The notes: generated from the letters alone by a model not told the origin. Positions 12,392 through 62,343 are shown, numbered from the stretch's first letter. The stretch: 64,000 nucleotides of DNA from Actinomycetota bacterium (GCA_005798555.1 SYJA01000087.1:5157-69156), one strand, 5' to 3'. Translations and numbers: made by a program.

Positions 12392-12417
12392 TCAATTCGC
12401 ATGTCAAGGCAAGTTGG

Positions 12418-37891: not shown

Positions 37892-37931
37892 CTAGATCAT
37901 CGTGATTTCAATTATTTGCGAGGCCAACAGG

Positions 37932-38372: not shown

Positions 38373-38530
38373 GGCACGATCTTAGACCGGGCCTTGTTCG
38401 ACCCCATCAGCCTCCCCGCGGCCCGGTCCGATTACCTAGGTCGCGGGTCCCCTCGTCCCCGGGGGCGACCGTGAGCAGATTCACTCGGGGTGGGAAGCAC
38501 AAGTCCCTGACTACCTGAGATACTTCCCTC

Positions 38531-39136
38531 ATGGTGTCGACCACCCAAGTTCCTGCGGCTTATCAGCACGCCCCCGCCAATCGCCCCAATATCGTGGCCG
38601 TCGGGACCATCATTTGGCTGGCCAGCGAACTCATGTTCTTCGCTGCCCTTTTTGCCATGTACTTCACTATGCGGGCGGTTAACCCAGAACTTTGGGCCGA
38701 GGAAACCAAACTGCTCAATATTCCCTTCTCAAGCCTGAACACCACGATTTTGGTACTCTCCAGCGTTACCTGCCAGCTGGGAGTGTTCGCCGCTGAACGC
38801 GGTGAGGTCAAAGTCCTGCGTCGCTGGTTCATCATCACCTTTTTGATGGGGTCCTTCTTCATCGCCGGCCAGGTCACCGAGTACGTAGCACTAGTGCATG
38901 AGGGCCTGACCTTGTCCGCCAATGCCTATGGTTCTGCTTTCTACCTGACCACCGGGTTCCACGGTCTGCACGTGACCGGCGGGCTCATTGCCTTCCTGTT
39001 CGTGCTTGCCACCACCTACGCCACCAAGCGTTTCACCCATGATCAGGCCACTCGAGCGATCGTGGTGTCGTACTACTGGCACTTTGTCGACGTGGTCTGG
39101 ATCGCCCTGTTCTTCATGATTTATATCCTTAAATGA
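38531..39136 (+). CDS. ctaE: Cytochrome c oxidase subunit III
   Basis: 201 aa, 5 TM, typical actinobacterial CtaE preceding qcrCAB. Confidence 0.9.
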
Positions 39137-39155
39137 CGACGAAAGGCTTGCTCGC

Positions 39156-40999: not shown

Positions 41000-42768
41000 G
41001 CACGACGAATTCGGCGGCGGCCAATCCGATACCTGCAAGCCCAATCGAGGCAGCCGGTGGCGGGGTTGCGACATATGTCGATCAGCGGGTGGGCAGCAAC
41101 AAGTTCTTGGGTCGCACCCTCGGCAAAGTCTTTCCGGACCACTGGTCCTTCATGCTCGGTGAAATCGCCCTTTACAGCTTCCTGGTCGTACTCCTATCCG
41201 GGGTCTACTTAACTTTGTTTTACAAGCCATCCATGGTCGAGGTCATCTATAACGGCTCCTATGTGCCCCTCAAGGGCATCGAAATGTCAGAGGCTTACGC
41301 ATCAACCCTAGACATCTCATTCGACGTGCGCGGTGGGCTCTTGATCCGCCAAATGCATCACTGGTCGGCCCTAATCTTCATAGCCGCAATCGCGGTGCAC
41401 ATGTTCCGGGTTTTCTTCACCGGCGCATTTCGCAAGCCACGGGAATTCAACTGGATACTCGGCGTCGGCTTGGCCACCTTGGCCCTGGCCGCTGGGTTCT
41501 CCGGTTACTCATTGCCCGATGACCTCCTCTCCGGCACCGGACTGCAGATCGCCCGCGGCATCGTGCAGTCCATCCCAATTGTCGGCACTTGGGGAGCGTT
41601 CTTGCTATTCGGTAGCGAATTCCCCGGCACCGACTTCATCTCCAGGCTCTACGGCATCCATATCTTGCTGGTCCCCGGGCTCATTCTCGCCCTCGTCTCT
41701 GTGCACCTAATGCTGGTTTGGACCCAAAAGCACACCCAGTTCCCCGGCCCGGGCCGCACCAATAACAACGTGGTGGGCTACCCTCTCATGCCGGTGTACA
41801 TGGCAAAAGCGGGCGGCTTCTTCTTCATCGTGTTCGGCATCTGCACCCTGATCGCCGGCCTAGTGACAATTAACCCAATTTGGCTTTTCGGGCCCTACAC
41901 CCCAGACCAAGTCAGCGCCGGTTCACAGCCGGACTGGTACATAGGTTGGCTCGATGGGGCGCTGCGGATCATGCCGAATCTTGAGTCTTACTTATTCGGC
42001 TACACCATTTCCTGGAACATTTTGATCCCCGCGGTTATCATGCCCGGGATCGTCTTCACCGCACTTGCCTTCTATCCGTTCTTAGAGGCCTGGATCACCG
42101 GGGACAAGCGCGAGCATCACCTCTTGGATCGCCCGCGCAACAACCCAACCCGCACCGGCATTGGGGTCATGGCAATAACTTTCTACGGCTTGCTCTGGAT
42201 CGGTGGCGGCAACGACATCATCGCAACTAGTTTCAACCTGACTATCAACTCAATTACCTGGTTCCTTCGCATCGCCGTCTTCGTGCTGCCACCAATCGCG
42301 TTCTTAGTAACCAAGCGCATCTGCTTGGCCCTGCAGCGCCGCGACCGCGACAAATTACTGCACGGTTACGAAACCGGACGGGTGCTACGCCTGCCCCATG
42401 GCGAATTCATCGAGGTGCACGAAACCATCAATTACAAGGAGATGGCGGTCATCACCTCTAAGAGCGACATCGCGCCGTTGCCGGCTCCGGTCAAGGTCGA
42501 CGCCGACGGAGTTGCCAACCGTAAGTACTGGATCCAGTCGCTTCGTGCCAAGCTCAGCAACTTCTTCTACGCTGACAACATCTCCAAGCCAACCGCCGCG
42601 GAGATCGAAGCCGCCCAGCACCATCTCGATCATGGCGCGGCCCTTGAGGCTCCGCTGCACGCCTATGAGGACGCCGATGAAATCCGCAACGCGCACGGCG
42701 GCGTGCTGCACCACCCCGGGATGGCCAACACCAACGCAGAACAGTTAGCCGGGCGAAGCGATCGCTGA
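40996..42768 (+). CDS. qcrB: Cytochrome bc1 complex cytochrome b subunit
   Basis: Start set at ATG 40996 (ATGA overlap with the qcrA stop). Long polytopic cytochrome b with a C-terminal extension. Confidence 0.9.
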   Translation: MSTTNSAAANPIPASPIEAAGGGVATYVDQRVGSNKFLGRTLGKVFPDHWSFMLGEIALYSFLVVLLSGVYLTLFYKPSMVEVIYNGSYVPLKGIEMSEAYASTLDISFDVRGGLLIRQMHHWSALIFIAAIAVHMFRVFFTGAFRKPREFNWILGVGLATLALAAGFSGYSLPDDLLSGTGLQIARGIVQSIPIVGTWGAFLLFGSEFPGTDFISRLYGIHILLVPGLILALVSVHLMLVWTQKHTQFPGPGRTNNNVVGYPLMPVYMAKAGGFFFIVFGICTLIAGLVTINPIWLFGPYTPDQVSAGSQPDWYIGWLDGALRIMPNLESYLFGYTISWNILIPAVIMPGIVFTALAFYPFLEAWITGDKREHHLLDRPRNNPTRTGIGVMAITFYGLLWIGGGNDIIATSFNLTINSITWFLRIAVFVLPPIAFLVTKRICLALQRRDRDKLLHGYETGRVLRLPHGEFIEVHETINYKEMAVITSKSDIAPLPAPVKVDADGVANRKYWIQSLRAKLSNFFYADNISKPTAAEIEAAQHHLDHGAALEAPLHAYEDADEIRNAHGGVLHHPGMANTNAEQLAGRSDR

Positions 42769-43121
42769 GCACGGGGTCCACCTGGGCCGGCTACGACCAC
42801 AGCAAATAGAGTGCGCAAAGCAGATTCATGCTCGCCCAATGCATATTTCTTGCCGCTTACCCCGAGCACTCCCCGCACTCGATGCTGCCCCCGAACACCG
42901 CGCTTGGACAAACTACCGGCGTTACCTCACTAACACTTAGGCAGACTACTGATCCTGCCGACCCTTGATTCTTTAAATTCCAAATATAGGCAATTCCACT
43001 GCAAGGGGTGCTGCCCAACTTTGCTCCAAACACCCACAATGACGACTACGCCAAAAAATCCAATGATCAATTCGATCAGTAGGTTAGAGCTGAAATTGCT
43101 TTCCAGTCATTCGCATGGGGC

Positions 43122-43517
43122 TCAGTGGGCGAATTCGCCCCGGTAGTACTCAAAGAGCCAACCCACCAATGCAACAAGAAGAACCCCAACGCCTAGTACC
43201 AACAACCACACCGCGAAAATAAAGCCAAAAACCACCATCAGGGTCGCAAAACCAACGACTAACGGCCACCACGAATGCGGGCTGAAGAACCCGTATTCGG
43301 GATCGGCTTCATCGATATCCGCATCAAGGCGATCCTCAGGCCGGGGGTAGACCCGCTTGGATGTGTAGAGCACGTAAAAGGCCACCAAGAAGGCCAGCGC
43401 CCCGGAGAGGGCTAGCGCGGTGGTGCCGATCGGATCACGGGACAGGAACCAATAGACGCCCGCGGTAGGCGGGAAGAAGATCGCACCTAGGCCGAAGATG
43501 GCACCTTCGATCCTCAC
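43122..43517 (-). CDS. ctaF: Cytochrome c oxidase subunit IV (actinobacterial CtaF)
   Basis: 131 aa, 4 TM, with a 4-nt overlap to the ctaD stop. Confidence 0.8.
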
Positions 43518-45211
43518 GCCTTTGACCCTTCACCAACTGGTGCGTTGGTACTCATCGCCAGCTCGGGATGATGCAGGTCAAATGCTGGCCGCTCCGACCG
43601 GATCTTGGGTATCGACACGAAGTTGTGGCGTGGCGGCGGGCACGAGGTCGCCCACTCCAGCGAGCCACCCCAGCCCCACGGGTCATCAACGCCGACTAAC
43701 GGCGCGGTGCGGACGGTCTTGATGACGTTCCAGAAGAAGAACAGCGAGGAGATGCCTAGAATCGCCGCGCCCACGGTCGAGACCGCATTGAGCGTAGAAA
43801 AGCCATCCGAGGGCAGGTAATCCCCGTAACGACGGGGCATGCCCTGCACGCCCAGCCAGTGCTGCACCAGGAAAGTCGTCTGGAAACCGACGAACAGCAG
43901 CCAGAAGTGGATCTTGCCGAGGCGCTCATCGAGCATTTTGCCGGTCATCTTGGGCCACCAGAAGTAAAGGCCGGCGAAGAACATGAAGACCACGGTGCCA
44001 AATACCGTGTAGTGGAAATGCGCCACCACGAAGTAGCTATCGGACAGGTGGAAGTCAAGCGGCGGCGACGACAAGATAATGCCCGTGAGACCGCCGAACA
44101 AGAACGTGAACATAAAGCCCAAGGTCCAGAGCATCGGGGTGTCAAAAGCGACAGAGCCTTTCCACATAGTGCCGATCCAATTGAAGAACTTCACTCCGGT
44201 AGGCACCGCGATCAGCATCGTCATGAAGGCGAAGAAAGGCAGATAGACCGAGCCAGTCACATACAGGTGGTGCGCCCAAACGGCCATGGAAAGGGCACCG
44301 ATCCCCAAGGTCGCGAGGACTAAGCCCTTGTAGCCAAAAATTGGCTTACGGGAAAATACCGGAATGATTTCACTGGCTATACCAAAGAATGGCAACGCCA
44401 GAATATACACTTCAGGGTGCCCAAAGAACCAGAAGAGGTGCTGCCAAAGCATCGCCCCACCGTTTTCCGACGCGAAGACAACCGCCCCATAGTTTCGGTC
44501 GATGAATGCGAGTGCTAGCGCACCAGCCAGCACCGGGAAGGCCAGCAGCGCCAACACACTGGTCACAAAAATCGTCCACGTGAATAACGGCATCCGGAAC
44601 ATCGTCATACCGGGGGCGCGCATGCAGAAAATAGTTGTCACGAAGTTAACCGAGCCAAGAATTGTGCCCAAGCCGCCCATGGCCAGGCCCAATAGCCACA
44701 GGTCACCGCCCACCTCGGGCGAGTAGAAAGCATTGCTCAACGGTGCGTAGGCAAACCAGCCGAAAGCCGCCGCGCCACCTGGGGTAAGGAATCCCGCTGC
44801 CACTGTTAGCCCGCCGAAAGCAAACAGCCAGAACCCCAACATATTCAGCCGAGGAAATGCCACATCCGGTGAGCCGATCTGCAATGGCATGATGACATTC
44901 GCGTAGCCAACAAATAGTGGGGTGGCGAACAGAAACAACATGATCGTTCCATGCATGGTAAATAGTTGGTTGTATTGCTCAAGGGAGATGAATTGCAGCC
45001 CCGGGACAGCCAGTTCGGCTCGGATGGCTAAGGCCATTGCACCGGCAGCGAAGAACCAAAATGTGGCAAGCATCAGGTACATGTAGCCGATGACTTTATG
45101 GTCGGTAGACGTTAGCCATGACACCACCAGCGCACCCGGAGTCCGCTTCCTGTGCTGCGGCGCCTCCGGCAGTTTGTCTGCGATGTCAACGCGGTCGCTG
45201 AGAATCGTCAT
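43514..45211 (-). CDS. ctaD: Cytochrome c oxidase subunit I
   Basis: 565 aa haem-copper oxidase subunit I (…[11 protein letters not shown]…, HHMY/HHLY-type region). Confidence 0.95.
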
Positions 45212-46041
45212 ATAGTTGTCTCCTCGGGCATCTGACCCTCGTCGGTGCTTCTACCGGTATCCAACAAACCTGACTGCCCCTGGGCTCGCAATTGCTCCAC
45301 ATAAGCGTCAAATTCGGCGCGCTCTACCACTTTGACCGTAAATAACATACTTGAATGCTCCACCCCGCATAGCTCTGCGCACCGGCCCGGGTAGGTGCCG
45401 GCCTTGTCGGGTGTTAACTCAAAGGCATTCGTCTTGCCGGGGATTACGTCCATCTTGAATAAGAAATCCGGCACCCAAAAGGAGTGGATCACATCCGGCG
45501 AGGTGAGTTCGAATCGCACTTTTTCATTAACGGGCAGCACCAGCACCGCAGGTTGCGCCGGGCTACCCACCGCGTAAACATCCTCATCTAGGTAGTTAAA
45601 GCCCCAGTTCCAGCGATAGGCGACCACGGTGACCGTTTGGGCCTGATCATTCTCCATCGTCAGAAGTTCGCTTTGGTCACGGGCGGTGAACCAGAACAAC
45701 CCGAGAATCATGATGAGCGGCACAATCGTGTAAAGCAATTCAACTGGCAGATTGTAAGCGGTCTGTTCTGGAACTTCGTCCTTGTGCCGGCGGCGATAGG
45801 CCACCGCAGCCCAAATCATCAGCCCCCAAGTAACGATCCCGACCCCCCAGGCGGCCAACCACGAACCGTTCCAAAGATTTAGGACTATGTGGCCCTCCTT
45901 CGAAGCCGGTTCTGGCATATCGAAGAAGAAAGCCTCATTGGCGGTACAGCCACTCAACAGGCCCGCTGCGACCACGGTGCCAAGGATGATAACCAGCGCC
46001 CGCGGACGGCGCAGACTAGCCGCCCACTTAGACAAACCCAC
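45208..46041 (-). CDS. ctaC: Cytochrome c oxidase subunit II (lipoprotein)
   Basis: 277 aa with lipobox LLSGC and CuA site [12 protein letters not shown]. Confidence 0.9.
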
Positions 46042-46171
46042 GAAACGCCCTCCGCTGGAAGCTCCAAATCACCTTGATGTTAGCGCCTAAGAGCCGAGGT
46101 TGCCTTCTCACCCCGGGCAAATTGACGTGAGGTATTCGCCACACCCTTCGGGCCCGACTAACGTGCTGTCC

Positions 46172-47284
46172 ATGGGTAGTAATTGGCAGCCACCACCGGG
46201 GCTACTCGATGGCGTCGGCGGCCAGCCGGCGTCAGCCACCGCGGCCGCGGCCCAGGGTGCTGCTGCTGCGCTGGCCTGGGCAGATCCGCGATCCCTTCAC
46301 CATGCTGGCCGCCGCAGTGACGGGCTCCTCGCTGCGGCCCGCCGCAGTATCGCCGACAGTGTGTCCGCCGCCGCGGGCACGACCATCCACGCCGACGAGG
46401 TCTATTTCACCCCGTCGGCGCTGGCGGCACAAACCATCGCCCTCGCCGGCTGCCCGGGCCCGGTTGTCATGAGCGCCGTTGAAACCGCAGCACTGCTTGA
46501 TCTCGGTGACCTTCGAGACCACTCGCAAGTAATCGGAGTTGACGCCGCCGGCCGCGTGGATGTCGGCGCTTTCGGCCAGGCCGCGGCCGGCAAGGCCATA
46601 GCCGCCCTGCAACTGGCCAATAGCGAGGTTGGCACCTGCCAGCCGATTGAGCACGTGGCAGCGGCAAGCCCGGGGCTGCCGATCTTGATGGACGCCACCG
46701 GAGGGCTGGGGCGGATCCAATTGCCCACTGGGTGGGCCATGCTCACCGCTGGGGCCGGCGGGTGGGCTGGCCCGGCCGGGGTCGCCATCTTGGTGGTGCG
46801 CCGCGGCGGGCGGTGGGGTTCACCACCGGCAAGTGAGCGCGGCCTGCTCGGCGGCTTTGCCGATATCCCCGGGGCCGTTGGTGCGGCAACCGCCCTTGCC
46901 GAACTCAGTGCCGAACAAGATGCCCAACATGATCAAGCATTCGCCAATATCGAATTACTTCGAGCCGGTATCGCCTCCAAGATCACCGATGTCGAAGTCT
47001 TAGGTGATGGGGTCTGGCGCCTACCGCATATCCTGACGTTCTCCGTGCTATACGTCTCCGGTGAGGCCCTGGTACTCGAACTGGATAAGCGCGGGTTCGC
47101 GGTCGCCAGCGGCTCAGCCTGCGTTGCCGAGGAGGCCCGGCCCAGCCACGTGCTAGCTGCCATGGGTGCCTATACGGGTGGCAATATCCGAATTTCCCTG
47201 CCCCTTGGCTGCACCACCGAAACGGTTGAGGGCTTCCTCGATGCGCTTCCTGATGCGGTTGCCGCGGTTCGAGCCGATAACTAG
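46172..47284 (+). CDS. Cysteine-desulfurase homologue lacking the PLP-binding lysine (catalytic Cys loop retained)
   Basis: Start re-chosen at ATG 46172. Aligned by eye to the IscS in this window, [18 protein letters not shown] corresponds to LTAGAGGWAGPAGVAILVV, so His-Lys is replaced by Gly-Gly. The loop ASGSACVAE is kept. Confidence 0.7.
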   Translation: MGSNWQPPPGLLDGVGGQPASATAAAAQGAAAALAWADPRSLHHAGRRSDGLLAAARRSIADSVSAAAGTTIHADEVYFTPSALAAQTIALAGCPGPVVMSAVETAALLDLGDLRDHSQVIGVDAAGRVDVGAFGQAAAGKAIAALQLANSEVGTCQPIEHVAAASPGLPILMDATGGLGRIQLPTGWAMLTAGAGGWAGPAGVAILVVRRGGRWGSPPASERGLLGGFADIPGAVGAATALAELSAEQDAQHDQAFANIELLRAGIASKITDVEVLGDGVWRLPHILTFSVLYVSGEALVLELDKRGFAVASGSACVAEEARPSHVLAAMGAYTGGNIRISLPLGCTTETVEGFLDALPDAVAAVRADN

Positions 47285-52289: not shown

Positions 52290-52454
52290 TAAGACTCCTC
52301 CGACCCCGTTTGGCTCGACATTTCAACCGCCCGAAAGCGACCATGTCTGTCCTACGGCCGCCATCCTAGAGTGCCTAAGGCGGGATCAGGTAATCGTGGA
52401 AGCGGGGTGGAGATAGGCGGGTCGGGATTGACAACGGCGCGTCAGCCGTGGGAA

Positions 52455-52624
52455 GTTGACCCCACAACTGAATCCGCGTAATTGAATCCAGGGAAAGTCC
52501 GGTGCGATTCCGGCGCTGTCCCGCAACCGTGATCCCAGTCTTTGGGAGAGTCGGAGCACCTGGCAGTTACGAACGGCTCCACCCGTCGAGGTAACGGAAC
52601 GGAGCCCGGGTCTTTACCCGGTCT
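52455..52624 (+). promoter_or_regulatory. Cobalamin riboswitch (aptamer core about 52477-52571 plus platform hairpins)
   Basis: Matches conserved cobalamin-riboswitch elements: AGGGAAAGUCCGGUGCGAUUCCGGCGCUGUCCCGCAACCGUGA (B12-box region) and GAGUCGGAGCACCUGGC. An 8-bp P1 forms between CGUAAUUG (52477-52484) and CAGUUACG (52564-52571). Confidence 0.85.
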
Positions 52625-52656
52625 CCCTTCATGCAGCAATGCTGAAGGGGTTTTTT
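52625..52656 (+). terminator. Intrinsic terminator forming the riboswitch expression platform
   Basis: Stem CCCTTCA(T)GCA, loop GCAA, stem TGC-TGAAGGG, followed by a run of six T (52651-52656). Lies immediately upstream of the first gene of the operon. Confidence 0.8.
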
Positions 52657-52705
52657 GTGGCCGAATAGGACGTGGGCACCAGGACAAACCGACTCAACCA
52701 AGAAT

Positions 52706-53743
52706 ATGGTGACCATGTCCAAACGATTTTCCGCACTTGTGGCGCTGGCCACAACGATTCTCGCCCTCGGCGCCGTCGCGCAGCCCGCATCTGCCAACCC
52801 GGCGGCCAATTCGGGCCTCTATGGCCGCGGGGATGCCACTTATGACGGCGTCTTTCGCCAGTCCCTGGGGATCTTGGGCCTGGTCGCAAATGACGTCAAG
52901 CCAGGCAAGGCAGCTATCACCTGGCTCCTTAAGCAGCAGTGCGCTGATGGCAGTTTCCAGGCGTACCGCCCCGATCCGAGCAAGGCTTGTGGTGTCTCCG
53001 ATCCGGTCAACTACACCGGCCCCGACACCAACTCCACCGCGCTGGCCCTAAGCGCTCTCCTGGCAGTGGATCAGGCCGCAAGTGCCGATGCGGCCGCGAC
53101 CTGGTTGGCGAAGCACCAAGACACTGATGGGGGTTGGCCTTGGTTCCTCGGTGGTGCCACCGACCCCGCATCCACCGGCTTGGTGCTGTCCGCATTGATG
53201 GGCGAGGCACCAAGTCGGCAGGTGCCCGTTTACCGAAAAGCCGCCCGCTACCTGAACCGCTTGGCCGTAGGTTGCGCGAGCGGTGGCGGACTTTCCTATG
53301 AGAGGGGCGCCGCCGCAGATCCCCTCGCCACCGCACAGGGCTTCTTGGGACTTGTTGCGACCTTGCCGGTCAGCGGATCGAGTTCCATCAAGCTAGCCGC
53401 AAATCCAACTTGCGGCAGGTCGGCAACGGGCGCAGCCGGCAGTTACCTGGCCACGAAGATCACGGGCGCTGGCGCACTACCCAGCGCATTTGGGTCAGAC
53501 CCTGATTACACGTCAACAAGTTTTGCTGTCCTTGGTTTCGTGGCGAACTCCAATGGCCGGCAAGCGGTAACCAAAGGCACCGCCACCTTGGTTGCAAATG
53601 CGAGTGCCTACGCGATGCCGGCGGGAGCAGCTAACCCTGGTGCTTTGGGTTTGCTGCTGCTGGTGAGCGAGGCGACGAATATGAAGCCAACCAATTTCGG
53701 TGGCATCAATTTGATCACTACGTTGCAGCAGAACCAGCAGTAA
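52706..53743 (+). CDS. Exported prenyltransferase/squalene-oxidase-repeat (alpha/alpha-toroid) protein
   Basis: Start re-chosen (ATG 52706 or 52715). Signal peptide MSKRFSALVALATTILALGAVAQPASA. Repeats WLLKQQCADGSF and WLAKHQDTDGGWPW. First gene behind the B12 riboswitch. Confidence 0.7.
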   Translation: MVTMSKRFSALVALATTILALGAVAQPASANPAANSGLYGRGDATYDGVFRQSLGILGLVANDVKPGKAAITWLLKQQCADGSFQAYRPDPSKACGVSDPVNYTGPDTNSTALALSALLAVDQAASADAAATWLAKHQDTDGGWPWFLGGATDPASTGLVLSALMGEAPSRQVPVYRKAARYLNRLAVGCASGGGLSYERGAAADPLATAQGFLGLVATLPVSGSSSIKLAANPTCGRSATGAAGSYLATKITGAGALPSAFGSDPDYTSTSFAVLGFVANSNGRQAVTKGTATLVANASAYAMPAGAANPGALGLLLLVSEATNMKPTNFGGINLITTLQQNQQ

Positions 53744-54447
53744 TGCCACGTGTCGCCCGGGCCAGCTGCATCAGCGTCGCAATTTGTCTTGCGGCGCTGT
53801 TGTTCAGCCCGGTGGCCCGGGCCGAGACCGGATACCGCTATTGGACGTTTTGGACAGTGCGCAATGGCCAATGGATTTTCTCCCAGGTTGGTCCGGCGGG
53901 TACCGCACCGGTCGACGGCGATGTGCAGGCTTGGCGGTTCGCGGTCACTGCAAATGCAAGTGGCAGCACCAGCGAACCGCGCACCGACCCGTCCCGGGCT
54001 TTCGAACTGATTTGCGGTTCCGTTCAGCAACCCGATGGCCAGATTCGAGTTGCCATGGTCATTGATCCGGGTGTTGCCGATACCGCACCTGCCGGACAAT
54101 CGCCACCACCAGCGCGTGGCGCGTGCGCGGTCATTGACGAATCAAAGTCCGGTGCCGATGCCTTGATGGCAGTGGCGACACCGCGCGTGCAGTCGGGATT
54201 GGTCTGCGGGATCGACTCGTACCCAACCGGTGAATGCGCAATTGCCATCGATACCACCGCAACTTCGATTGGCGCAGCTGAGGTGACCGATGTTTTGGCG
54301 GCGCCGTCAACTGCGGTGAGCGAGAGTGCCAGCGCTGCGGTTCCGGCAGCCGCCGATGGCAGCCCGGTGCCGCTCATCGCAGTCGGGGTGGTCATCGCAC
54401 TTGGCTTGGTCGGCGCTTGGGAATTACAGCGCAGGCGGTCGTCATGA
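53743..54447 (+). CDS. Exported, C-terminally membrane-anchored protein of unknown function (SCO2322-like as I recall the family name)
   Basis: 234 aa with TAATG coupling. Signal peptide ...LLFSPVARA, four Cys, an Ala/Ser-rich linker, and a TM anchor PLIAVGVVIALGLVGAW followed by RRRSS. Confidence 0.55.
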   Translation: MPRVARASCISVAICLAALLFSPVARAETGYRYWTFWTVRNGQWIFSQVGPAGTAPVDGDVQAWRFAVTANASGSTSEPRTDPSRAFELICGSVQQPDGQIRVAMVIDPGVADTAPAGQSPPPARGACAVIDESKSGADALMAVATPRVQSGLVCGIDSYPTGECAIAIDTTATSIGAAEVTDVLAAPSTAVSESASAAVPAAADGSPVPLIAVGVVIALGLVGAWELQRRRSS

Positions 54448-55565
54448 CTGGGTCACTCTTCACCCTCCCACGGTGGTTGCACCCGGCAGCCTGGTGGGTT
54501 TGGGCCCTAGGACTGGCTGCAGCGGCAAGTCGCACCACCAATCCGTTATTACTCTCCTTGATCATTGCCGTGGCAGCACTCGTGGTCTTTGCTCGAAAGC
54601 CGGATGCACCGTGGGGGCGATCCTTCATCTTCTTCCTGCGGCTAGGGGTGGCGGTTATCGTCATTCGGGTGGGCGTCCAACTGATTTTCGGTGCGGCGTT
54701 CGGCACCACGGTGCTACTTCAGCTGCCCGGCGTGGCCTTGCCCTCATGGTTAGCAGGGGTTCGACTTGGTGGTGACATCACCTTTGAGAGCGTGCTTTTG
54801 GCTTTCTATGACGGCTTGCGGCTGGCGACTATCTTGATCTGCGTCGGGGCCGCAAACTCCCTCGCCTCACCAAGTAGGTTGCTGAAGTCCGTGCCTGCAG
54901 CGCTCTACGAGTTCGGAGTCAGCGTGGTAGTCGCCATGACGTTTACACCTCAACTCGTTGCCGACGTCGATCGGGTGCGCACCGCCCGCCGCTTACGTGG
55001 TCGCCCAACAAGAGGTGTCCGGGCAATTGCCGGCGCAGCGATGCCGGTTTTCGAGGGGGCACTTGAAAAATCCGTGACACTCGCGGCGGCCATGGACTCC
55101 CGCGGCTACGGCCGCCGCGGCGCAATTAGTGCCGCCCAGCGCCGCCTGAACTCAGTGCTATTGCTAACCGGGCTGGTCGCCGCCTGCATCGGCACTTACG
55201 CTCTCATCGCCGCCGGGTCCCCGGCGGCGCTCGGGCTGCCCATGCTGGTTGTTGGTGTGAGTGTCTGCATCACTTCGATCACGTGGTCAGCGCGCACTGC
55301 CGTGCGCACCCGCTACCGGCCAGACCCATGGGCGCTCCCGGAGAATTTGGTGGCCGGCGCCGGCGTGCTGGTGGCCTTGAGCTTTCTCGCCGCCAATTGG
55401 GTGGCCATGCCGGGCTTGGCTACCCCTAGTAACCCACCGACCTGGCCGGCGCTGCCGCTCCTGCCACTCCTCGGTTTGCTAATTGCTGCCACTCCGGCAC
55501 TCACGGCACCCACGCTGCCCCGCACCATCGTTGGCGAGTTGCCAAGGATCGGGGTCCCCTCATGA
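54444..55565 (+). CDS. ecfT: ECF transporter transmembrane (T) component with an extended C-terminus
   Basis: Start at ATG 54444 (ATGA overlap). CbiQ/EcfT coupling motifs (VDRVRTARRLRG; LAAAMDSRGYG), followed by roughly 100 extra residues with further TM helices. Confidence 0.75.
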   Translation: MTGSLFTLPRWLHPAAWWVWALGLAAAASRTTNPLLLSLIIAVAALVVFARKPDAPWGRSFIFFLRLGVAVIVIRVGVQLIFGAAFGTTVLLQLPGVALPSWLAGVRLGGDITFESVLLAFYDGLRLATILICVGAANSLASPSRLLKSVPAALYEFGVSVVVAMTFTPQLVADVDRVRTARRLRGRPTRGVRAIAGAAMPVFEGALEKSVTLAAAMDSRGYGRRGAISAAQRRLNSVLLLTGLVAACIGTYALIAAGSPAALGLPMLVVGVSVCITSITWSARTAVRTRYRPDPWALPENLVAGAGVLVALSFLAANWVAMPGLATPSNPPTWPALPLLPLLGLLIAATPALTAPTLPRTIVGELPRIGVPS

Positions 55566-57184
55566 TCAACTTCGAGTGCGTTTCGATTACCTACCCGGGC
55601 GCCACCGAGCCGGTACTCACCGAGGTGAACCTGCAGATCCCCGAGGGTGAGCTCGTGTTGGTCGTAGGCCGCACCGGCAGTGGCAAGACCACCTTGCTCC
55701 GGGCCATCAACGGCTTGGTCCCGCACTTCACCGGTGGCACGCTCACCGGCCGAATCCTCGTCGACGGACGCGACACCGCCACCAACCCACCGCGCGAACT
55801 AGCCGATCTGGTGGGCGTGGTGCCGCAGGATCCGATGAGCGGATTTGTCGCCGACACGGTAGAGGAAGAACTCGCATATGGCATGGAGTGCCTTGGCCTG
55901 GCACCCGATGTCATGCGTCGGCGAGTTGAAGAAACCCTCGATCTACTTGGCTTAGTGGATCTGCGCAACCGGCCACTGCTGTCACTTTCGGCCGGCCAAC
56001 GGCAACGGGTAGCAATCGGCTCGGTGCTGGCTTCACACCCGACAGTGCTCGTACTTGATGAACCCACCTCGGCCCTTGACCCCGGTGCCGCCGAGGACGT
56101 ACTCGCCGCACTGCAGCGCTTGGTGCACGATCTCAACGTCACGGTTGTGATGGCGGAACACCGATTGGAGCGAGTGGTGCAGTACGCCGATCGCATCGTG
56201 ATCGTGCCCGGCGATGGTGAACCAATAATCAGTGGCACCCCGAGCGAAATGATGGGCAATTCACCAATCGCCCCACCTGTTGTTGAACTCGGCAGACTCG
56301 CTGGTTGGCAGCCGCTCCCGTTGACCGTGCGTGACGCACGACGCGCCGCTGGCCCCCTGCGTGAGCTCCTGACCGGGCACGCGGCGCCACTTCGAATCAT
56401 CAAAGGTGCGCGCGACGCGACACCACTGATCGTAACTGACAAGTTGACCGTGCGTTACGGAGCTGTTGTCGCCCTGAAAAATGTGAGCACCACAATCACC
56501 CGAGGTGAAATCGTCGCACTAATGGGCCGAAATGGCGCCGGAAAATCTACGCTGCTGAGCACAATGGTGGGCCTAAGGCTGGCGAGTGCGGGGGTAGTTC
56601 GAACGAACGGTAAGGATCCCCGCGAGATTAAAGGTCCCGAACTCGTGCACAGTGTTGGCTTGGTGCCACAAGACCCCGGCGATCTACTCGAAGCCTCGAC
56701 CGTCGCCGGCGAGTGCCGATCATCAGACCATGACGCCAATGCTGAACTTGGAACCACCCGCGCGCTCTTGGCACTTCTCGCACCAGAAGTCATGGACGGC
56801 ACGCACCCGCGGGATTTATCCGAGGGCCAAAGGCTGCTCCTGGCGCTGGCTATCGTGCTCGCCGCCCGACCGCCACTGCTGCTACTTGATGAGCCAACGC
56901 GTGGCCTCGACTATCCCACCAAGGCAAGACTGGTAAAAATCCTTCGTGAGTTGGCAGCTACCGGGCACGGGGTCGTGCTGGCAACACATGATGTGGAACT
57001 GGCCGCGGAAGTAGCAACGCGGGTGATCGTGCTCGCCGAGGGCGAGGTCGTTGCCGATGGGCCGACCCACGAAGTGGTACTGGCCTCCCCCATGTTCGCA
57101 CCGCAGGTCGCGAAGATCTTGGCCCCCGAGGACTGGCTAACGGTCTCCGAGGTTCGCGCTGCGATGATTGAGCAGGTCGGCTAG
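55562..57184 (+). CDS. ECF transporter fused tandem ATPase (EcfA-EcfA')
   Basis: 540 aa with two ABC cassettes: Walker A GRTGSGKTT and GRNGAGKST, signatures LSAGQRQR and LSEGQRL. Confidence 0.9.
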   Translation: MINFECVSITYPGATEPVLTEVNLQIPEGELVLVVGRTGSGKTTLLRAINGLVPHFTGGTLTGRILVDGRDTATNPPRELADLVGVVPQDPMSGFVADTVEEELAYGMECLGLAPDVMRRRVEETLDLLGLVDLRNRPLLSLSAGQRQRVAIGSVLASHPTVLVLDEPTSALDPGAAEDVLAALQRLVHDLNVTVVMAEHRLERVVQYADRIVIVPGDGEPIISGTPSEMMGNSPIAPPVVELGRLAGWQPLPLTVRDARRAAGPLRELLTGHAAPLRIIKGARDATPLIVTDKLTVRYGAVVALKNVSTTITRGEIVALMGRNGAGKSTLLSTMVGLRLASAGVVRTNGKDPREIKGPELVHSVGLVPQDPGDLLEASTVAGECRSSDHDANAELGTTRALLALLAPEVMDGTHPRDLSEGQRLLLALAIVLAARPPLLLLDEPTRGLDYPTKARLVKILRELAATGHGVVLATHDVELAAEVATRVIVLAEGEVVADGPTHEVVLASPMFAPQVAKILAPEDWLTVSEVRAAMIEQVG

Positions 57185-57987
57185 TGACAAACTCCTTGGC
57201 CCTACGGCTTGGACCGCGATCCATCATCACCATCGCGGCCACCTCACTTGTCGGGATGGTTGCCTTCGGCTGGCCACTTATCGCTGCCCCGACTTCGAGT
57301 GTCGTCGCGCATGCCACCGATGCGCCCTGGTTGTTCGCCATCGTCATTCCACTACTGCTCGCCGTAGTTGTTTCGTCCTTCACCGACGGCGGCATGGACG
57401 CCAAGGCAATTGCCCTGCTCGGAGTCCTAGCAGCTGTCGTAGCGGTGCTGCGACCCCTAGGAGGTGGTACTGCCGGGCTGGAGCCGATCTGGGTCATTTT
57501 GGTGCTCGGTGGTCGTGCCCTTGGGCCCGGTTTTGGTTTTGCCCTTGGGGCGGTAGCACTTTTTTCATCGGCCCTGCTAACCGGTGGGGTGGGGCCGTGG
57601 CTGCCATTTCAAATGCTCGGGGCCGCATGGGTCGGCCTTGGCGCTGGCCTGCTGCCCAGGGCTACCGGCCGACCTGAACTCCTGCTCCTCGCCGCCTACG
57701 GTGCGCTCGCAAGCTTCGCCTACGGCCTGCTGATGAATCTTTGGTTCTGGCCCTTTGTCGCCAACCTGCCGGCCGCGCTCGCCTACGCACCCGGCGCACC
57801 AATTGTGGAGAACTTGGTGTCCTGGGTCCGATTTACTCTTGTGACGTCCCTTGGGTACGACATTCCACGCGCGGTGCTAACCGTCACGTTGACCCTCATC
57901 GCCGGCGCGCCTATCTTGAATGCACTGCGACGGGTTTCGCGCCGCGCGGCTTTTGACCCGCAGTCGATCTTCGTGCCGGTGCCATGA
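57184..57987 (+). CDS. ECF transporter substrate-capture (S) component, candidate cobamide-specific
   Basis: 267 aa polytopic membrane protein, GTG start overlapping the ATPase stop (TAGTG). S role inferred from its position in the ECF module. Confidence 0.6.
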   Translation: MTNSLALRLGPRSIITIAATSLVGMVAFGWPLIAAPTSSVVAHATDAPWLFAIVIPLLLAVVVSSFTDGGMDAKAIALLGVLAAVVAVLRPLGGGTAGLEPIWVILVLGGRALGPGFGFALGAVALFSSALLTGGVGPWLPFQMLGAAWVGLGAGLLPRATGRPELLLLAAYGALASFAYGLLMNLWFWPFVANLPAALAYAPGAPIVENLVSWVRFTLVTSLGYDIPRAVLTVTLTLIAGAPILNALRRVSRRAAFDPQSIFVPVP

Positions 57988-59390
57988 TCGTTCAACTGAT
58001 GGGCACCGGATCCGCGGACGGTTGGCCCAACCCATTTTGTCGCTGCCCATCGTGCACGAGCGAACGGGCCGCGGGTAGCACCCGATGCCCAACCGCAGCG
58101 CTGGTGGATGGCTGCCTCTTGCTGGACGCCGGGCCGACGGTAGCCGCGGCTGCCGGTCGATTCGGAACCTCGTTCGCCGATCTTGAGCATATTTTGATCA
58201 CCCACGGCCATCCGGACCACCTGGCCCCGGACTTTCTGCTCTGGCGCAGTTGGGTTGACCCCGGCTTCACGTTACATATCTGGGCGCCACCGGTTGCCCT
58301 CGAACGCTGCCGCGACTGGATCGGGCCAAATGATGCGGTGCAACTGCACCAGATCACCGCTGGCGAGGAATTGAACTTGGTGACACGAACCGGGGACTAT
58401 GCGGTGCGCACCCTGCCCGCAGCACATGCAACCGGTAATGGCGACGTGCTGGCCGAGGAAGCCGTGCTGTTCGACCTCACCGCCCCCGATGCACGCCGTC
58501 TCTTCTATGCAACTGATACCGGGCCATTCAGTGCGGCTTTGCTAGATCAGGTTCGTGGACGGTGCTTTGACCTGGTGCTACTTGATGAGACTTTTGGCAC
58601 CAAATTTGACCATGGGCACGGACACCTTGATCTAGAAACCTTTCCGCAGGCCGTGCAGGACCTGCGCGACATAAACGCAACCACCGAGCACACCGATGTT
58701 GTTGCGATACACCTGAGCCACCACAATCCGCCCACCGAGCAACTGCGGGCTTCGCTCTTGGGCTGTGGCGCCCGCGTTGTCGACGATGGCACCGCCATCG
58801 AGGTGGGCCTGCGGATAGCCGGTAACAGCCACCACTTCATCTTGGGTGGCGCCCGATCCGGTAAATCCCACTTCGCCGAAACCATCGCAGCCAGGTCTGG
58901 GCATGTCACCTATCTGGCGACCGGCTACCCGGCAGGTGAAGACCCAAACTGGAATGCCCGGATTGCCGCGCACCGCCAGCGCCGCCCGGGGCATTGGCGA
59001 ACCGAAGAGACCATTGACCTGGCCACGGCGATCGAAAAAGCAGCAGCCGGCAGCTGCCTGCTGATCGATTGCCTGGCCCTTTGGCTAACTAGGACATTGG
59101 ACGAGATCAACGGCTGGGCGACCGACCCGCAGGCTAGTGCGGTGGCCCAAAAGGAAATACATCGTCGAACCGACCAACTTGTTTCGGCCCTGCAAAATAC
59201 GCGGGCTGCAGTGATCCTCGTTTCGAATGAGGTGGGCCAAGGGGTGGTGCCGGAAACAAGCAGCGGACGCCTCTTTCGCGACCTACTCGGGGTTGTCAAT
59301 GCCCGGGTGGCCCAAACTTGCCATGAGGTCACTTTCATGATCGCCGGCAGATCTGTCCCACTACATGATTTGACCACGGTGAGAGGCTGA
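57984..59390 (+). CDS. cobU: Fusion of an MBL-fold (PhnP-like) metallo-hydrolase domain to adenosylcobinamide kinase/adenosylcobinamide-phosphate guanylyltransferase
   Basis: 468 aa. The N-terminal ~270 aa carry CRCPSC and ITHGHPDH (HxHxDH). The C-terminal ~185 aa carry the CobU P-loop ILGGARSGKS and a CobU-like body. Confidence 0.8.
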   Translation: MIVQLMGTGSADGWPNPFCRCPSCTSERAAGSTRCPTAALVDGCLLLDAGPTVAAAAGRFGTSFADLEHILITHGHPDHLAPDFLLWRSWVDPGFTLHIWAPPVALERCRDWIGPNDAVQLHQITAGEELNLVTRTGDYAVRTLPAAHATGNGDVLAEEAVLFDLTAPDARRLFYATDTGPFSAALLDQVRGRCFDLVLLDETFGTKFDHGHGHLDLETFPQAVQDLRDINATTEHTDVVAIHLSHHNPPTEQLRASLLGCGARVVDDGTAIEVGLRIAGNSHHFILGGARSGKSHFAETIAARSGHVTYLATGYPAGEDPNWNARIAAHRQRRPGHWRTEETIDLATAIEKAAAGSCLLIDCLALWLTRTLDEINGWATDPQASAVAQKEIHRRTDQLVSALQNTRAAVILVSNEVGQGVVPETSSGRLFRDLLGVVNARVAQTCHEVTFMIAGRSVPLHDLTTVRG

Positions 59391-59394
59391 CCGC

Positions 59395-60471
59395 ATGGCT
59401 AACCCGGACCCTTATCGAGTTGAAGTCGCCCTACCTGATGCGCCCGCCAGTTCGGAAGCAGCTGCACGGCAATTAACACTTACGAAACCCGCCGGCGCGC
59501 TCGGGCGCTTGGAAGAAATCAGCAGCTGGGCCGCCGGGGTTCAAGGTCGTTGCCCACCGATCCCGTTCACCCGACCCAGTGTTGTCGTCTTCGTCGGCGA
59601 CCACGGGGTCGCGCGTGCGGTCGGCACCTCCGCCTTCCCGACCGAGGTCACCGCCCAGATGGTCCTGAATTTCTTGGCCGGCGGCGCCGCCGTTAATGTC
59701 TTGGCACGAAAGGTTGGCGCGCAGGTCCGCGTGATCGATGTCAGCGTTGACTGCGACCGCGCCTATCTAGACAAAATCGCTCCCGAGGTCGCACAACATC
59801 GGGTCAGGCGCGGTAGCGGTGCGATCGACCGCGAGGATGCGCTGACCCAAGCCGAGGGTGAAGCAGCATTTGCACTCGGTCAGCGCATCGCCGATGAGGA
59901 AATCGACTCCGGGGCGGATCTGTTGATCGCAGGTGACATGGGGATAGGCAACACCACCCCGGCGGCGACGTTGATCGGACTACTCACCTCGAATGATGCC
60001 GCCACCGTCACCGGCAGGGGCACCGGCATTGATGACGCCACCTGGATGCGGAAGTGTGCAGCAGTCCGCGATGCGATGCGACGCGGGCGACCCTTCATTG
60101 GTGAACCAAGGAAGTTGCTGCAAGTGGTGGCGGGCGCCGATATCGCAGCGATGTCAGGCTTCCTACTGCAAGCGGCAATTCGCCGCACGCCGGTGCTTCT
60201 TGACGGCACGATCACCACCGCGGCGGCCCTGGCCGCTGACCGAATTGACTACCGGGCCAAGAACTGGTGGCTGGCTGGCCACCTATCAGCTGAACCAGCA
60301 CATGCCCTTGCCCTAAATCGCCTGAACATGACACCGTTACTCAGTTATCAAATGCGCCTCGGCGAAGGCACCGGCGCCCTGCTGGCCCTGCCGATTTTAC
60401 AGTCGGCAATTGCGTTATTAAATGAGATGGCGACCTTCGCTGAGGCTGGGGTGTCAGACCGCGATGCCTGA
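59395..60471 (+). CDS. cobT: Nicotinate-nucleotide--dimethylbenzimidazole phosphoribosyltransferase
   Basis: 358 aa CobT family (GDMGIGNTT; ...LGEGTGA). Confidence 0.9.
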   Translation: MANPDPYRVEVALPDAPASSEAAARQLTLTKPAGALGRLEEISSWAAGVQGRCPPIPFTRPSVVVFVGDHGVARAVGTSAFPTEVTAQMVLNFLAGGAAVNVLARKVGAQVRVIDVSVDCDRAYLDKIAPEVAQHRVRRGSGAIDREDALTQAEGEAAFALGQRIADEEIDSGADLLIAGDMGIGNTTPAATLIGLLTSNDAATVTGRGTGIDDATWMRKCAAVRDAMRRGRPFIGEPRKLLQVVAGADIAAMSGFLLQAAIRRTPVLLDGTITTAAALAADRIDYRAKNWWLAGHLSAEPAHALALNRLNMTPLLSYQMRLGEGTGALLALPILQSAIALLNEMATFAEAGVSDRDA

Positions 60472-61219
60472 CTGGCTTCGACTTTCCGTTGGCACCTTCA
60501 CCCGGCTGCCGGTGCCAGCCCCACGCAGGGTAGACCAAGCCACCGCCGGGTGGGCTATGACGTTCGCACCGGTCATCGCATTCGTGCTGGCTCTAATCTG
60601 CGCCCTGCCCGTGCTTCTAGCAGGCAACAACCTGGCTAGAGCACTGCTCCTGTCGGCGCTTAGCGTTGGACTCCTCACCTGGTGCACGCGTGCACTCCAT
60701 CTCGATGGGCTCGCCGATACCGCCGACGCACTGGGCAGTGGTAAACCGGCCGCCGAGGCCCTGGTGATCGCCCGTAAATCCGATATCGGACCCTTCGGGG
60801 TGCTGGCCATTGCCTTCACTTTGGCGTTGCAGGTATTTGCACTCAGCGCTGCGGCAACTACCTCGTTGGGTGCGGGCCGTGGCTACCTGATGCTGATCAT
60901 CGCCGTAGTCACCGGACGCATTGCCCTGCTTTGGGCCTGCACCAAGCCGGTGCCGGCGGCACGACCCGATGGGCTCGGGGCCGTTGTTGCAGGAACCGTG
61001 CCATGGTTCGTGACTGTTGGCTGGACGATCGCGCTGCTGCTAGCCGCCTATTTCGCCCTCAATCTCGTTGGCTTGGGCATGGTCATCGCCGGAATCATCA
61101 TTGGGGTGATTGTCATTGCAATTGCAAGTCGCAGGCTCGGTGGGGTCACCGGTGATGTGCTTGGGGGGGTGATCGAGACCAGCACCACTGCCGCCCTCGT
61201 GATCGGCGCCCTGCTTTAA
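60464..61219 (+). CDS. cobS: Adenosylcobinamide-GDP ribazoletransferase (cobalamin synthase)
   Basis: Start re-chosen at ATG 60464 (8-nt overlap with the cobT stop). Polytopic, with HLDGLADTADAL and GGVTGDVLG motifs. Confidence 0.85.
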   Translation: MPDWLRLSVGTFTRLPVPAPRRVDQATAGWAMTFAPVIAFVLALICALPVLLAGNNLARALLLSALSVGLLTWCTRALHLDGLADTADALGSGKPAAEALVIARKSDIGPFGVLAIAFTLALQVFALSAAATTSLGAGRGYLMLIIAVVTGRIALLWACTKPVPAARPDGLGAVVAGTVPWFVTVGWTIALLLAAYFALNLVGLGMVIAGIIIGVIVIAIASRRLGGVTGDVLGGVIETSTTAALVIGALL

Positions 61220-62343
61220 GTCCGGGTGGACGGCTCCACAAATGGCGGCTTGGTCACGGTGAATTTCGACGCCCGGCCACGCACGTCCACGACTACCTCA
61301 TCACCGATATTTACCGACGGATCAAGTAACGCGAGCGCGATCCCTTGCTTCAGGGTCGGGGAAAAAGTACCGCTGGTCACTTCGCCGATGACCGCGCCGG
61401 CGAGTGCATCGCCGGCTACCTGGCGCACCTCCATATGCGGGCGCGGAATCCCGCGATCCATCGACTTGAGCCCGCGCAGTCGGCGCTTTGGTCCGACCTC
61501 GCGTTCCGCAACCAATGCAGCACGACCGGCAAATTCGGGTTTATCCCAGCCCACCGCCCAGGCCAACCCGGCCTGAACCGGGGAGATATCCAAACTGAGG
61601 TCCTGGCCGTGCAGCGGATAGCCCATCTCGGTTCGCAAGGTGTCGCGGGCACCCAACCCGGCGCGAACCAGGCCAAATTCATCGCGGCGGGCCAGCAGGG
61701 CATCCCAAAGCTCAACCAGCACGGACACTGGCGCCACTAGTTCATAGCCGTGCTCACCGGTGTAACCGGTACGGCACACGGTAACCGGCTCACCTCGAAA
61801 CTTCGAATCGGCCATGGTCAGGTAGTCATGATCGGCGGGCATGCCCATCGATTCGATCAGGGCCTTACTGCGCGGGCCCTGAACCGCGATGATTCCTAGA
61901 TCATTGTGCAGATCGACAATTTCAACGCCAGCTGGCGCTGCGCTTCGCAGGGCCGCTACGACAGTTGGCGCATTCGAGGCATTGGGCACCATGAATATGT
62001 CGTCATCGGCGCATCGGTAGACGATGAGATCGTCGATCACGCCACCGGACTCACTGAGTACCTCAGATTCCTTGCACAACATGGTGTACTGCGCTTGCCC
62101 CGATGTAATTCGATCCAGGTCGTTGGTGAGCAGCTCGTTAAGGAATGCCACGGCTCCCGGCCCCTGAATACGCACCTTGCCCATGTGCGAGACATCGAAA
62201 ATCCCAACGGCCGAGCGCACCGCGGTGTGCTCAGCGACCACCCCCGTGTATTCGATTGGCATCTCCCAGCCACCGAAGTCGGCCATCTTCGCGCCGGCAG
62301 CCACATGACGCTCGGCCAGTGGGGTCTGCTTCAGGGAATTCAC
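61216..62343 (-). CDS. gcvT: Glycine cleavage system aminomethyltransferase (T protein)
   Basis: 375 aa GcvT family (…FDVSHMG…, GYTGEHGYE). Confidence 0.9.

Follow-up and report, generated by a model that had tools for sequence, protein, structure and literature searches.

The window examined here, a 64-kb stretch (64,000 nucleotides, nt) of DNA from an Actinomycetota bacterium (GCA_005798555.1, SYJA01000087.1:5157-69156), contains a compact block in which a riboswitch of the cobalamin clan and an intrinsic terminator are followed by eight genes on the same (plus) strand, the last of which ends at position 61219 (Table 1). In order, these genes encode a SCO2321-like toroid protein; a SCO2322-family protein; the EcfT component, the fused EcfA-A' ATPase, and the S component of an energy-coupling factor (ECF) importer; a fusion of a metallo-beta-lactamase (MBL) hydrolase to CobU (MBL::CobU); CobT; and CobS. 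An earlier note on this DNA had assigned the same eight identities, and they stand; we refined them by placing genes 1 and 2 in the SCO2321 and SCO2322 families and by identifying gene 5 through its orthologues.

The genes are packed with almost no space between them. One-base overlaps join genes 1 and 2 (TAATG at 53743) and genes 4 and 5 (TAGTG at 57184), ATGA overlaps occur at 54444 (genes 2/3), 55562 (genes 3/4), and 57984 (genes 5/6), cobU is separated from cobT by 4 nt (59391-59394), and cobT overlaps cobS by 8 nt (60464-60471). All seven junctions are exactly those given in the note, and nowhere among the eight genes does a gap exceed 4 nt. Neither promoter-like matches (5 inside the block vs. 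2.8±1.6 in shuffles) nor terminator-like matches (7 vs. 9.6±3.6) are in excess. From the overlaps and the absence of gaps alone, we infer that the eight genes are co-transcribed.

Table 1. Features of the riboswitch-led block (positions counted from the first nucleotide of the window).
Feature	Position	Strand	Basis
Candidate promoter	52428..52457	+	-35 TTGACA 52428-52433, 18-nt spacer, weak -10 GAAGTT 52452-52457; conservation
Cobalamin-clan aptamer	52475..52613	+	Rfam core 52479-52569; own covariance model
Intrinsic terminator	52624..52656	+	8+3 bp stem, then T6; sequence and fold
Gene 1, exported single-domain alpha/alpha-toroid protein, SCO2321-like	52706..53743 (start perhaps 52715)	+	NCBIfam, Pfam, AlphaFold2 model
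Gene 2, SCO2322-family anchored protein	53743..54447	+	NCBIfam, PF28005, alignment, hydropathy
Gene 3, EcfT (CbiQ family)	54444..55565	+	Pfam CbiQ, E 4.7e-07, residues 27-233
Gene 4, fused EcfA-EcfA' ATPase, 540 residues, two ABC domains	55562..57184	+	Pfam ABC_tran, two stretches, E 5e-57
Gene 5, ECF S component, ~6-7 transmembrane helices	57184..57987	+	orthologues, hydropathy
Gene 6, PhnP-like MBL hydrolase (57984-58829) :: CobU (58830-59390)	57984..59390	+	Pfam Lactamase_B_2, E 1.8e-19; CobU, E 1.1e-52
Gene 7, CobT (nicotinate-nucleotide:dimethylbenzimidazole phosphoribosyltransferase)	59395..60471	+	Pfam DBI_PRT, E 4.8e-124
Gene 8, CobS (adenosylcobinamide-GDP ribazoletransferase)	60464..61219	+	Pfam CobS, E 1.7e-40

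The locus was compared with relatives found by a pattern scan seeded with the gene 1 alignment, in which each species was represented by one genome. More than 599 stretches matched, 556 of them encoding a relative of gene 1, and the best 80 loci of those stretches were kept (individual loci carry an L number below). All are from uncultured Actinomycetota, mostly freshwater 'Candidatus Nanopelagicales' metagenome-assembled genomes (MAGs); the closest, L006, shares 92-98% protein identity with the window. The source organism of the window is probably an uncultured freshwater actinobacterium related to these MAGs, and a probable vitamin B12 auxotroph. A few of the database titles, namely 'Bifidobacterium breve' (L003, L004, L048) and 'Rubrivirga' (L009, L025, L041, L042), clash with what the loci contain: their gene content and synteny are those of freshwater Actinomycetota, and the taxonomy labels of these MAGs look wrong.

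Is the RNA at the head of the block a cobalamin riboswitch? The earlier note had proposed a cobalamin aptamer with a terminator, to be checked against the Rfam family RF00174. At Rfam gathering thresholds, two RNA elements are present in the window, one of the cobalamin clan and the other a thiamine pyrophosphate (TPP) riboswitch. The best model for the former is AdoCbl-II (RF01689, clan CL00101), which matches the plus strand with 47.7 bits (cutoff 36.5; E 2e-08); one further CL00101 family, RF00174 or RF01482, also scores above its own cutoff and is suppressed by clan competition. The RF00174 assignment thus held at the level of the clan, but the best model is that of a sister family. In the relatives, the same element is best matched variously by RF01482, RF01689, or RF00174. 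We also built a covariance model (R1) from the leaders of 20 relatives. Its sole match in the window, with 149 bits, spans the whole aptamer, the 3' part of which includes the conserved hairpin CCGTCGAGGTAACGG. In an alignment of 56 sequences, 97.4% of the cells are paired and compensatory double changes are found at 20 of 33 pairs; the pairing is somewhat inflated, as this alignment was fitted to the model. None of 500 shuffles paired as well, and slid registers fell to 28-45% paired.

Two short hairpins lie between the aptamer core and the stem of the terminator. The latter (CCCTTCA-t-GCA, loop gcaa, TGC-TGAAGGG) is followed directly by TTTTTT, and the 3' part folds with a z score of -3.0. 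A simple terminator scanner with a loop limit of 8 nt misses this structure; folding and comparison recover it. A hairpin with a T-run at +37/38 nt recurs in 26 of 78 loci, including the window, with stems that differ in sequence and stay complementary. Both parts of the proposed leader, aptamer and terminator, were therefore borne out by clan match, covariation, and the stem with its T6. Upstream of the aptamer, the relatives conserve, at equal spacing, the series TTGAC(A/T), about 18 nt, GTGG-TCGGAT/TAGGAT, and then ACAACT; the last of these precedes the first paired helix by 8-14 nt in 57 of 78 loci (43 of them at 12 nt). This conservation suggests that transcription starts near ACAACT at 52465-52470. 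A second candidate for the -35 box, TTGACC at 52456, next to the note's start coordinate (52455), is unlikely, for a -10 box 17 nt further on would fall within the covarying first helix; the conserved TTGACA at 52428 fits better.

How constant is the association of this riboswitch with the genes behind it? Model R1 matched exactly once in 78 of the 80 loci, always on the gene strand and 100-450 nt upstream of gene 1. The remaining two offer no usable upstream sequence: L003 begins inside gene 1, and L040 has only 244 nt before it. Two extra loci, reached via homologues of gene 2, likewise carry a single riboswitch directly upstream of gene 1. With Rfam and R1, no second cobalamin riboswitch was found in the window's block, nor within ~10 kb in the 78 relatives. 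Of 75 assessable loci, 74 have gene 2 next after gene 1, and EcfT comes after in 61 of 67. Beyond that point, the loci diverge. The eight-gene form of the window is found in 15-18 loci, with the same tight order down to ~45% protein identity; a five-gene form (21 loci) ends at the S component and continues into gcvT and pepA, often through a short CobT-like open reading frame (ORF); and in a two-gene form (~6 loci) genes 1 and 2 stand alone behind the riboswitch. Linkage to the riboswitch is thus invariable for the exported pair, common for the importer, and limited to one sub-lineage for the salvage genes.

The two constant members of the block are predicted to act outside the cytoplasm. The product of gene 1 has a signal peptide ending in AQPASA, one N-terminal hydrophobic segment, and four conserved cysteines. 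It matches the NCBIfam equivalog SCO2321_fam (NF053823) with E 2.7e-57, but its 194.5 bits fall short of the 300 required; the alignment covers model positions 6-353 of 405, and the C-terminal ~50 residues of the model are missing. On these scores, gene 1 is homologous to the SCO2321 family and lies outside the equivalog. Its Pfam matches (TED, SQHop_cyclase, Prenyltrans) are weak, and the profile of the gene 1 family matches squalene-hopene cyclase with E 1.6e-24. An AlphaFold2 model from a 45-sequence alignment, with a predicted local distance difference test score (pLDDT) of 91, is a single alpha/alpha toroid, for which the top Foldseek matches in the PDB are drimenyl-diphosphate synthase and squalene-hopene cyclase (both with a TM-score of ~0.53) and complement TED domains (~0.5).

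Gene 2 passes the cutoff of its family, SCO2322_fam (NF040672), with 142.5 bits vs. 85, and all 44 homologues carry PF28005. Its product comprises a signal peptide, a beta-rich globular domain of ~140 residues, a low-complexity linker, and a C-terminal transmembrane helix followed by RRR; the transmembrane segments are predicted at residues 7-25 and 207-225, and the AlphaFold2 model has a pLDDT of 82. The globular domain opens with an invariant AYRYWTYW and contains four invariant cysteines (alignment A2). Since the two proteins appear to be exported and disulfide-bearing, one of them is membrane-tethered, and the corrinoid-sensing switch has this pair as its constant partner, we propose, with some reserve, that they might capture scarce corrinoids at the cell surface and hand them over to the ECF importer. 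A more specific version, in which the pair would be a split transcobalamin (gene 1 the alpha domain, gene 2 the beta or DUF4430-like domain), was considered and is unsupported: gene 1 has no match to a B12 carrier by profile or among the 50 fold matches listed, and gene 2 has none in the PDB by profile or by fold (E < 2).

Genes 3-5 are adjacent and overlapping, and their CbiQ-type T component, two ABC domains, and S component are predicted to form a dedicated (group I) ECF transporter. EcfT bears a C-terminal extension of about 110-140 residues (~234-373) with four or five extra predicted transmembrane helices, and it is conserved at full length in 61 loci. Gene 4 also matches the NCBIfam models ECF_ATPase_1/2 (E ~1e-88). 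Gene 5 has no direct match in Pfam or NCBIfam; its orthologues (45-81% identity) match PF12822 (ECF_trnsprt) in 16 of 22 cases, the best with E 1e-10, and NCBI and JGI label its close homologues as 'ECF transporter S component'. None of the 22 orthologues matches the CbrT-type family, and gene 5 has no sequence relative in the PDB among solved S components. In one of the loci, L029, the SCO2322-family gene and cobU are separated not by the ECF genes but by two other ORFs (287 and 412 residues; 11895-14067), whose products may be another kind of transporter or partner.

What would such a transporter carry? Four complete acI genomes lack B12 biosynthesis, and their riboswitch-led ECF module has been described as a putative cobalamin transporter (Kang et al. 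2017, PMC5301498). The combination of the two, no B12 biosynthesis and a riboswitch-led module, argues for a corrinoid rather than cobalt as the substrate (PMC5301498), and the lack of ring-synthesis genes in the 64-kb window agrees with this; we take a corrinoid to be the probable substrate of genes 3-5. That ECF importers can serve this purpose is established by ECF-CbrT of Lactobacillus delbrueckii, which was shown experimentally to import cobalamin and cobinamide (Santos et al. 2018, PMC5997447).

The last three genes encode salvage enzymes. The CobU half of gene 6 scores 179 bits against NCBIfam PRK05800.1 (cutoff 161), and its GGARSGKS P-loop and H330 are invariant in 17 fusions. CobT passes PRK00105.1 by a wide margin (452.6 bits vs. 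306). CobS passes its Pfam cutoff (139.8 vs. 23.2) and lies below the NCBIfam equivalog cutoffs (best 145 vs. 282). Many relatives carry, between the S component (or CobS) and gcvT, the short CobT-like ORF of ~176 residues noted above (L011:15504-16031, L007:18869-19306, L012, L013, L018, L023, L032, L048, L049, L071, L074-L076, and L080). It covers only positions 147-313 of the 350-position CobT model, and its occurrence beside a full CobT in several loci suggests either a separate small gene or a remnant. The window lacks this ORF, and its cobS directly adjoins gcvT.

The N-terminal 282 residues of gene 6, the MBL half, are nearest to PhnP (PDB 3g1p, E 1.5e-4; NCBIfam PhnP, E 6e-9). PhnP is a phosphodiesterase that acts on ribosyl cyclic phosphate. 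As the MBL half falls far below the PhnP equivalog cutoff (35.6 vs. 272 bits), it is PhnP-like, not PhnP. Residues C19, C21, and C24 (CxCxxC), H74xH76xD78H79, H148, D178, H243, and H246 are invariant in the 17 orthologous fusions, and in these 17 loci the two halves are in one frame with no stop between them. An exhaustive search returned at least ~45 full-length clusters (50% identity) of MBL::CobU; the named ones are annotated only as CobU and are of metagenome origin. In each of the 17 loci with cobU immediately behind the importer, CobU is fused to the MBL half, and in the four loci with cobU placed otherwise (L026, L029, L030, L081) it is a stand-alone protein of ~180 residues. These counts, from few and related genomes, hint that the fusion is tied to the importer-adjacent cobU.

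What might a fused hydrolase do for CobU? Precedent comes from CbiR of Akkermansia muciniphila, which cleaves the phosphoribosyl bond of the nucleotide loop to yield cobinamide-phosphate that feeds CobU, CobT, and CobS, a real remodelling route (Mok et al. 2020, PMC7733943). By analogy, the most likely activity of the MBL half would be on a phosphoester of the nucleotide loop, a proposal that is itself doubtful. The earlier note had called the nucleotide-loop assembly at this locus complete and had spoken of remodelling. The first claim stands for cobU-cobT-cobS, which are present, and not for the remainder: the window encodes no CobC/CobZ-type phosphatase and no corrinoid adenosyltransferase, unless the MBL half supplies the phosphatase step. 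The second found no direct support, as neither CbiZ nor CbiR is encoded in the window and the MBL domain is the sole candidate. A third claim, that no corrin-ring synthesis gene lies in the window, was correct.

Taken as a whole, we consider it fairly likely that the block is a corrinoid-repressed locus for uptake plus salvage. It would operate as follows. The leader RNA would start at the promoter ~10 nt upstream of the aptamer. When the corrinoid cofactor is sufficient, the aptamer would be expected to bind it, and the hairpin and U-run would end transcription; when corrinoids are scarce, read-through would extend into eight translationally coupled genes. The soluble, exported gene 1 protein and the gene 2 protein, tethered by its C-terminal helix, would then take up corrinoid at the surface and pass it to the group I ECF importer. 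Inside the cell, CobU would convert an incomplete corrinoid (cobinamide or cobinamide-phosphate) to its guanosine diphosphate (GDP) form, CobT would convert a base to alpha-ribazole phosphate, and CobS would couple the two. The MBL half has two conceivable places in this scheme: by opening the nucleotide loop of a cobamide that is not wanted, it could provide cobinamide-phosphate to the CobU half to which it is fused, as in CbiR-like remodelling, or it could remove the 5'-phosphate (the CobC step). The boldest form of the proposal, that the SCO2321-like and SCO2322-family proteins are a new corrinoid-capture pair feeding an ECF importer and that the MBL half is a new loop hydrolase, a non-homologous analogue of CbiR (or CobC) channelling into CobU, is possible and, in our estimation, rather unlikely to hold in all its parts.

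A number of observations weigh against this picture, and the first group concerns the exported pair. The proteins that gene 1 resembles are terpene cyclases and TED domains, and none is a known binder of corrinoids; transcobalamin, intrinsic factor, and Cobalamin_bind were not found for it among the 50 fold matches listed, by profile, or in Pfam scans of 45 members. Gene 2 has no fold match in the PDB (E < 2) and no PDB sequence match by profile. To our knowledge, ECF importers classically require no extracytoplasmic partner, and ~6 loci hold genes 1 and 2 under the riboswitch without an adjacent transporter. The pair might not bind corrinoids at all and have another B12-linked extracytoplasmic task, such as freeing corrinoid from carrier proteins or from particles, shielding the importer or helping to assemble it in the envelope, or modifying an envelope compound of isoprenoid-like character. 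The homology of gene 1 to squalene-hopene cyclase and prenyltransferase repeats, the lack of a recognisable relative for gene 2, and the occurrence of the pair apart from a transporter all speak for this alternative, to which we give appreciable weight while thinking it doubtful. On the other side, only this pair is found behind the riboswitch without exception (all 78 loci that have upstream sequence; the two genes are paired in 74 of 75), and its export renders cytosolic prenyl-diphosphate chemistry implausible. Moreover, no DxDD-type cyclase motif was seen by eye among the conserved columns of the gene 1 alignment (A1), on which no formal motif search was run. Finally, the high-affinity B12 carriers transcobalamin and intrinsic factor themselves use an alpha/alpha barrel.

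The second group concerns the reach of the riboswitch. A clear terminator is present in only the 26 of 78 relatives mentioned above, which indicates that the expression platform varies among genomes; the remaining loci, mostly of higher GC content, presumably use another. In three relatives (L026, L030, L081), a detached cobU-cobT-cobS has no cobalamin riboswitch by Rfam or model R1, and B12 control of salvage is therefore a matter of adjacency in one sub-lineage, not a conserved requirement. It could be, then, that the riboswitch controls only the promoter-proximal genes (the exported pair, perhaps the ECF genes), that cobU-cobT-cobS are expressed mainly from an internal, B12-independent promoter within coding sequence further upstream, and that the block reflects adjacency, not regulation as one unit. 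The two- and five-gene forms, which lack the salvage genes, are in keeping with this, as are two weak sigma-70-like matches on the plus strand (55539-55566 and 57889-57917). However, these internal matches score 9/12 and are no commoner than in shuffles, the ATGA overlap before cobU and the 4-nt gap before cobT leave no intergenic room, the tight eight-gene order is kept in 15-18 genomes down to ~45% protein identity, and MBL::CobU is confined to the importer-adjacent arrangement. We regard an internal promoter of this kind as improbable. The note's proposal that one B12-sensing leader governs both uptake and salvage genes thus keeps its footing in the compact block and the lack of a second riboswitch, and loses it where cobU-cobT-cobS are detached. 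In M. tuberculosis, PPE2-cobQ-cobU offers a precedent for cobU behind a cobalamin riboswitch (PMC12713380).

The third group concerns substrate and pathway. Gene 5 has no detectable similarity to CbrT: neither its single sequence nor its profile matches the CbrT chain in the PDB (E <= 10). Neither CobC nor a corrinoid adenosyltransferase was found in the 64-kb window, and a de novo pathway elsewhere in the genome is possible, the window being the scope of our search. A substrate other than a corrinoid, be it a lower-ligand base or alpha-ribazole (as proposed for CblT-type S components) or cobalt (as with the B12-riboswitch-controlled CbiMNQO), is very improbable for the ECF system. CobT and CobS do share its operon, its T component and ATPase match the 'cobalt transport' CbiQ family and the cbiO models, and its S component lacks similarity to the one proven corrinoid S component. 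However, any ECF module would give such CbiQ and cbiO matches, and there is no component of the CbiM/CbiN type. The transporter-only form (21 loci without full CobT and CobS) would have no use for an imported base, and cobalt import under B12 control would be pointless in acI genomes that have the module and no B12 biosynthesis (PMC5301498).

The surroundings of the block are conserved. Upstream are nadA and a DUF3043 gene, and downstream are the convergent gcvT (61216-62343, minus strand), which the end of cobS overlaps by 4 nt, and pepA. Most loci share this actinobacterial backbone, nadA-DUF3043-...-(cobT-cobS)-gcvT-pepA, and the block sits at the same chromosomal spot in dozens of genomes in its two-, five-, or eight-gene form. 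This shared backbone is compatible with the insertion of the riboswitch plus six genes that the note had envisaged, and no less with an old layout since lost or rearranged elsewhere.

Farther away in the window, the TPP riboswitch (RF00059, 67.7 bits) is immediately followed by a gene for a PnuC-family transporter (15781-16386; the two together span 15675-16386). In acI genomes, Kang et al. (2017, PMC5301498) took the pairing of a THI element with PnuC to indicate a PnuT importer of thiamine. A carotenoid cluster (6801-15672) encodes a CruF-like hydratase, a glycosyltransferase, CrtD-like and CrtI-like desaturases, phytoene synthase, a polyprenyl diphosphate synthase, and two small lycopene-cyclase subunits; within the cluster lies metF (10290-11201, minus strand). 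A respiratory neighbourhood (36806-47284) contains trpD, ctaE, qcrC-qcrA-qcrB, ctaD, and ctaC, and its conservation supports the note's comparison with the mycobacterial chromosome region. Fe-S cluster genes are also found in the window.

Few bacteria in lakes are more abundant than the freshwater Actinomycetota of Nanopelagicales type. None of the acI genomes studied to date has B12 biosynthesis, so these organisms depend on B12 from others, and the locus is the best candidate for its acquisition by this group. Should the exported pair bind corrinoids, it would be a new B12-capture family in monoderm bacteria, and the importer would be a rare case of an ECF system with extracellular helpers. 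Should MBL::CobU cut or dephosphorylate the loop, cobamide remodelling would gain a third type of enzyme, unrelated to the others, or else the missing phosphatase step would be filled. If both were true, B12-auxotrophic freshwater Actinomycetota would scavenge and re-tailor whatever corrinoid they met. The two-, five-, and eight-gene forms behind the same riboswitch are nature's own test of which parts have to be under B12 control.

How does the locus compare with known systems? The link between riboswitch and ECF module is already published (PMC5301498). What is undescribed in the literature searched, from which most subscription journals were outside coverage, is the exported pair together with the MBL::CobU fusion. 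Within it, no functional description of the SCO2321 or SCO2322 proteins, of prenyltransferase- or squalene-hopene-cyclase-like proteins linked to cobalamin riboswitches, of the exported pair, or of an MBL-CobU fusion was found, and the only paper naming any SCO2321-2325 locus tag concerns an unrelated delivery peptide. The SCO2321 and SCO2322 families (NF053823, NF040672, PF28005) are likewise families in name, without a described function; gene 2 passes the cutoff and gene 1 does not. With BtuG/BtuH of Bacteroides and with transcobalamin and intrinsic factor, the pair would share the concept of a high-affinity extracellular binder that supplies a membrane transporter, and the transcobalamin-type fold belongs to the same alpha/alpha class as gene 1. 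In contrast, comparisons by sequence, by profile, and by fold (for gene 1, among the 50 matches listed) connect the genes described here with none of these proteins, and gene 2 matches neither the beta-domain of transcobalamin nor any other PDB entry.

CbiR (PMC7733943) is a hydrolase encoded beside cobU, cobT, and cobS, and it supplies the working analogy for the MBL half. CbiR is a member of the AP endonuclease 2 superfamily; the MBL half, in contrast, is PhnP-like, unrelated in sequence, and fused to CobU. ECF-CbrT (PMC5997447), an ECF-type ABC importer, is the functional model for genes 3-5. It relies on a shared (group II) module and has no extracytoplasmic partner; the importer described here is predicted to be dedicated (group I), with fused A-A' domains, an extended T component, and an S component in which no sequence similarity to CbrT is detectable. 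Closest of all are the acI modules (PMC5301498), which come from the same or a close lineage, place a cobalamin/AdoCbl riboswitch before an ECF module, and have the pairing of a TPP riboswitch with PnuC in common with the window. That report describes an 'ECF module' only, leaving the exported proteins, the S-component family, and the link to cobU-cobT-cobS undescribed; the window presents the longer, eight-gene form of this arrangement, with MBL::CobU.

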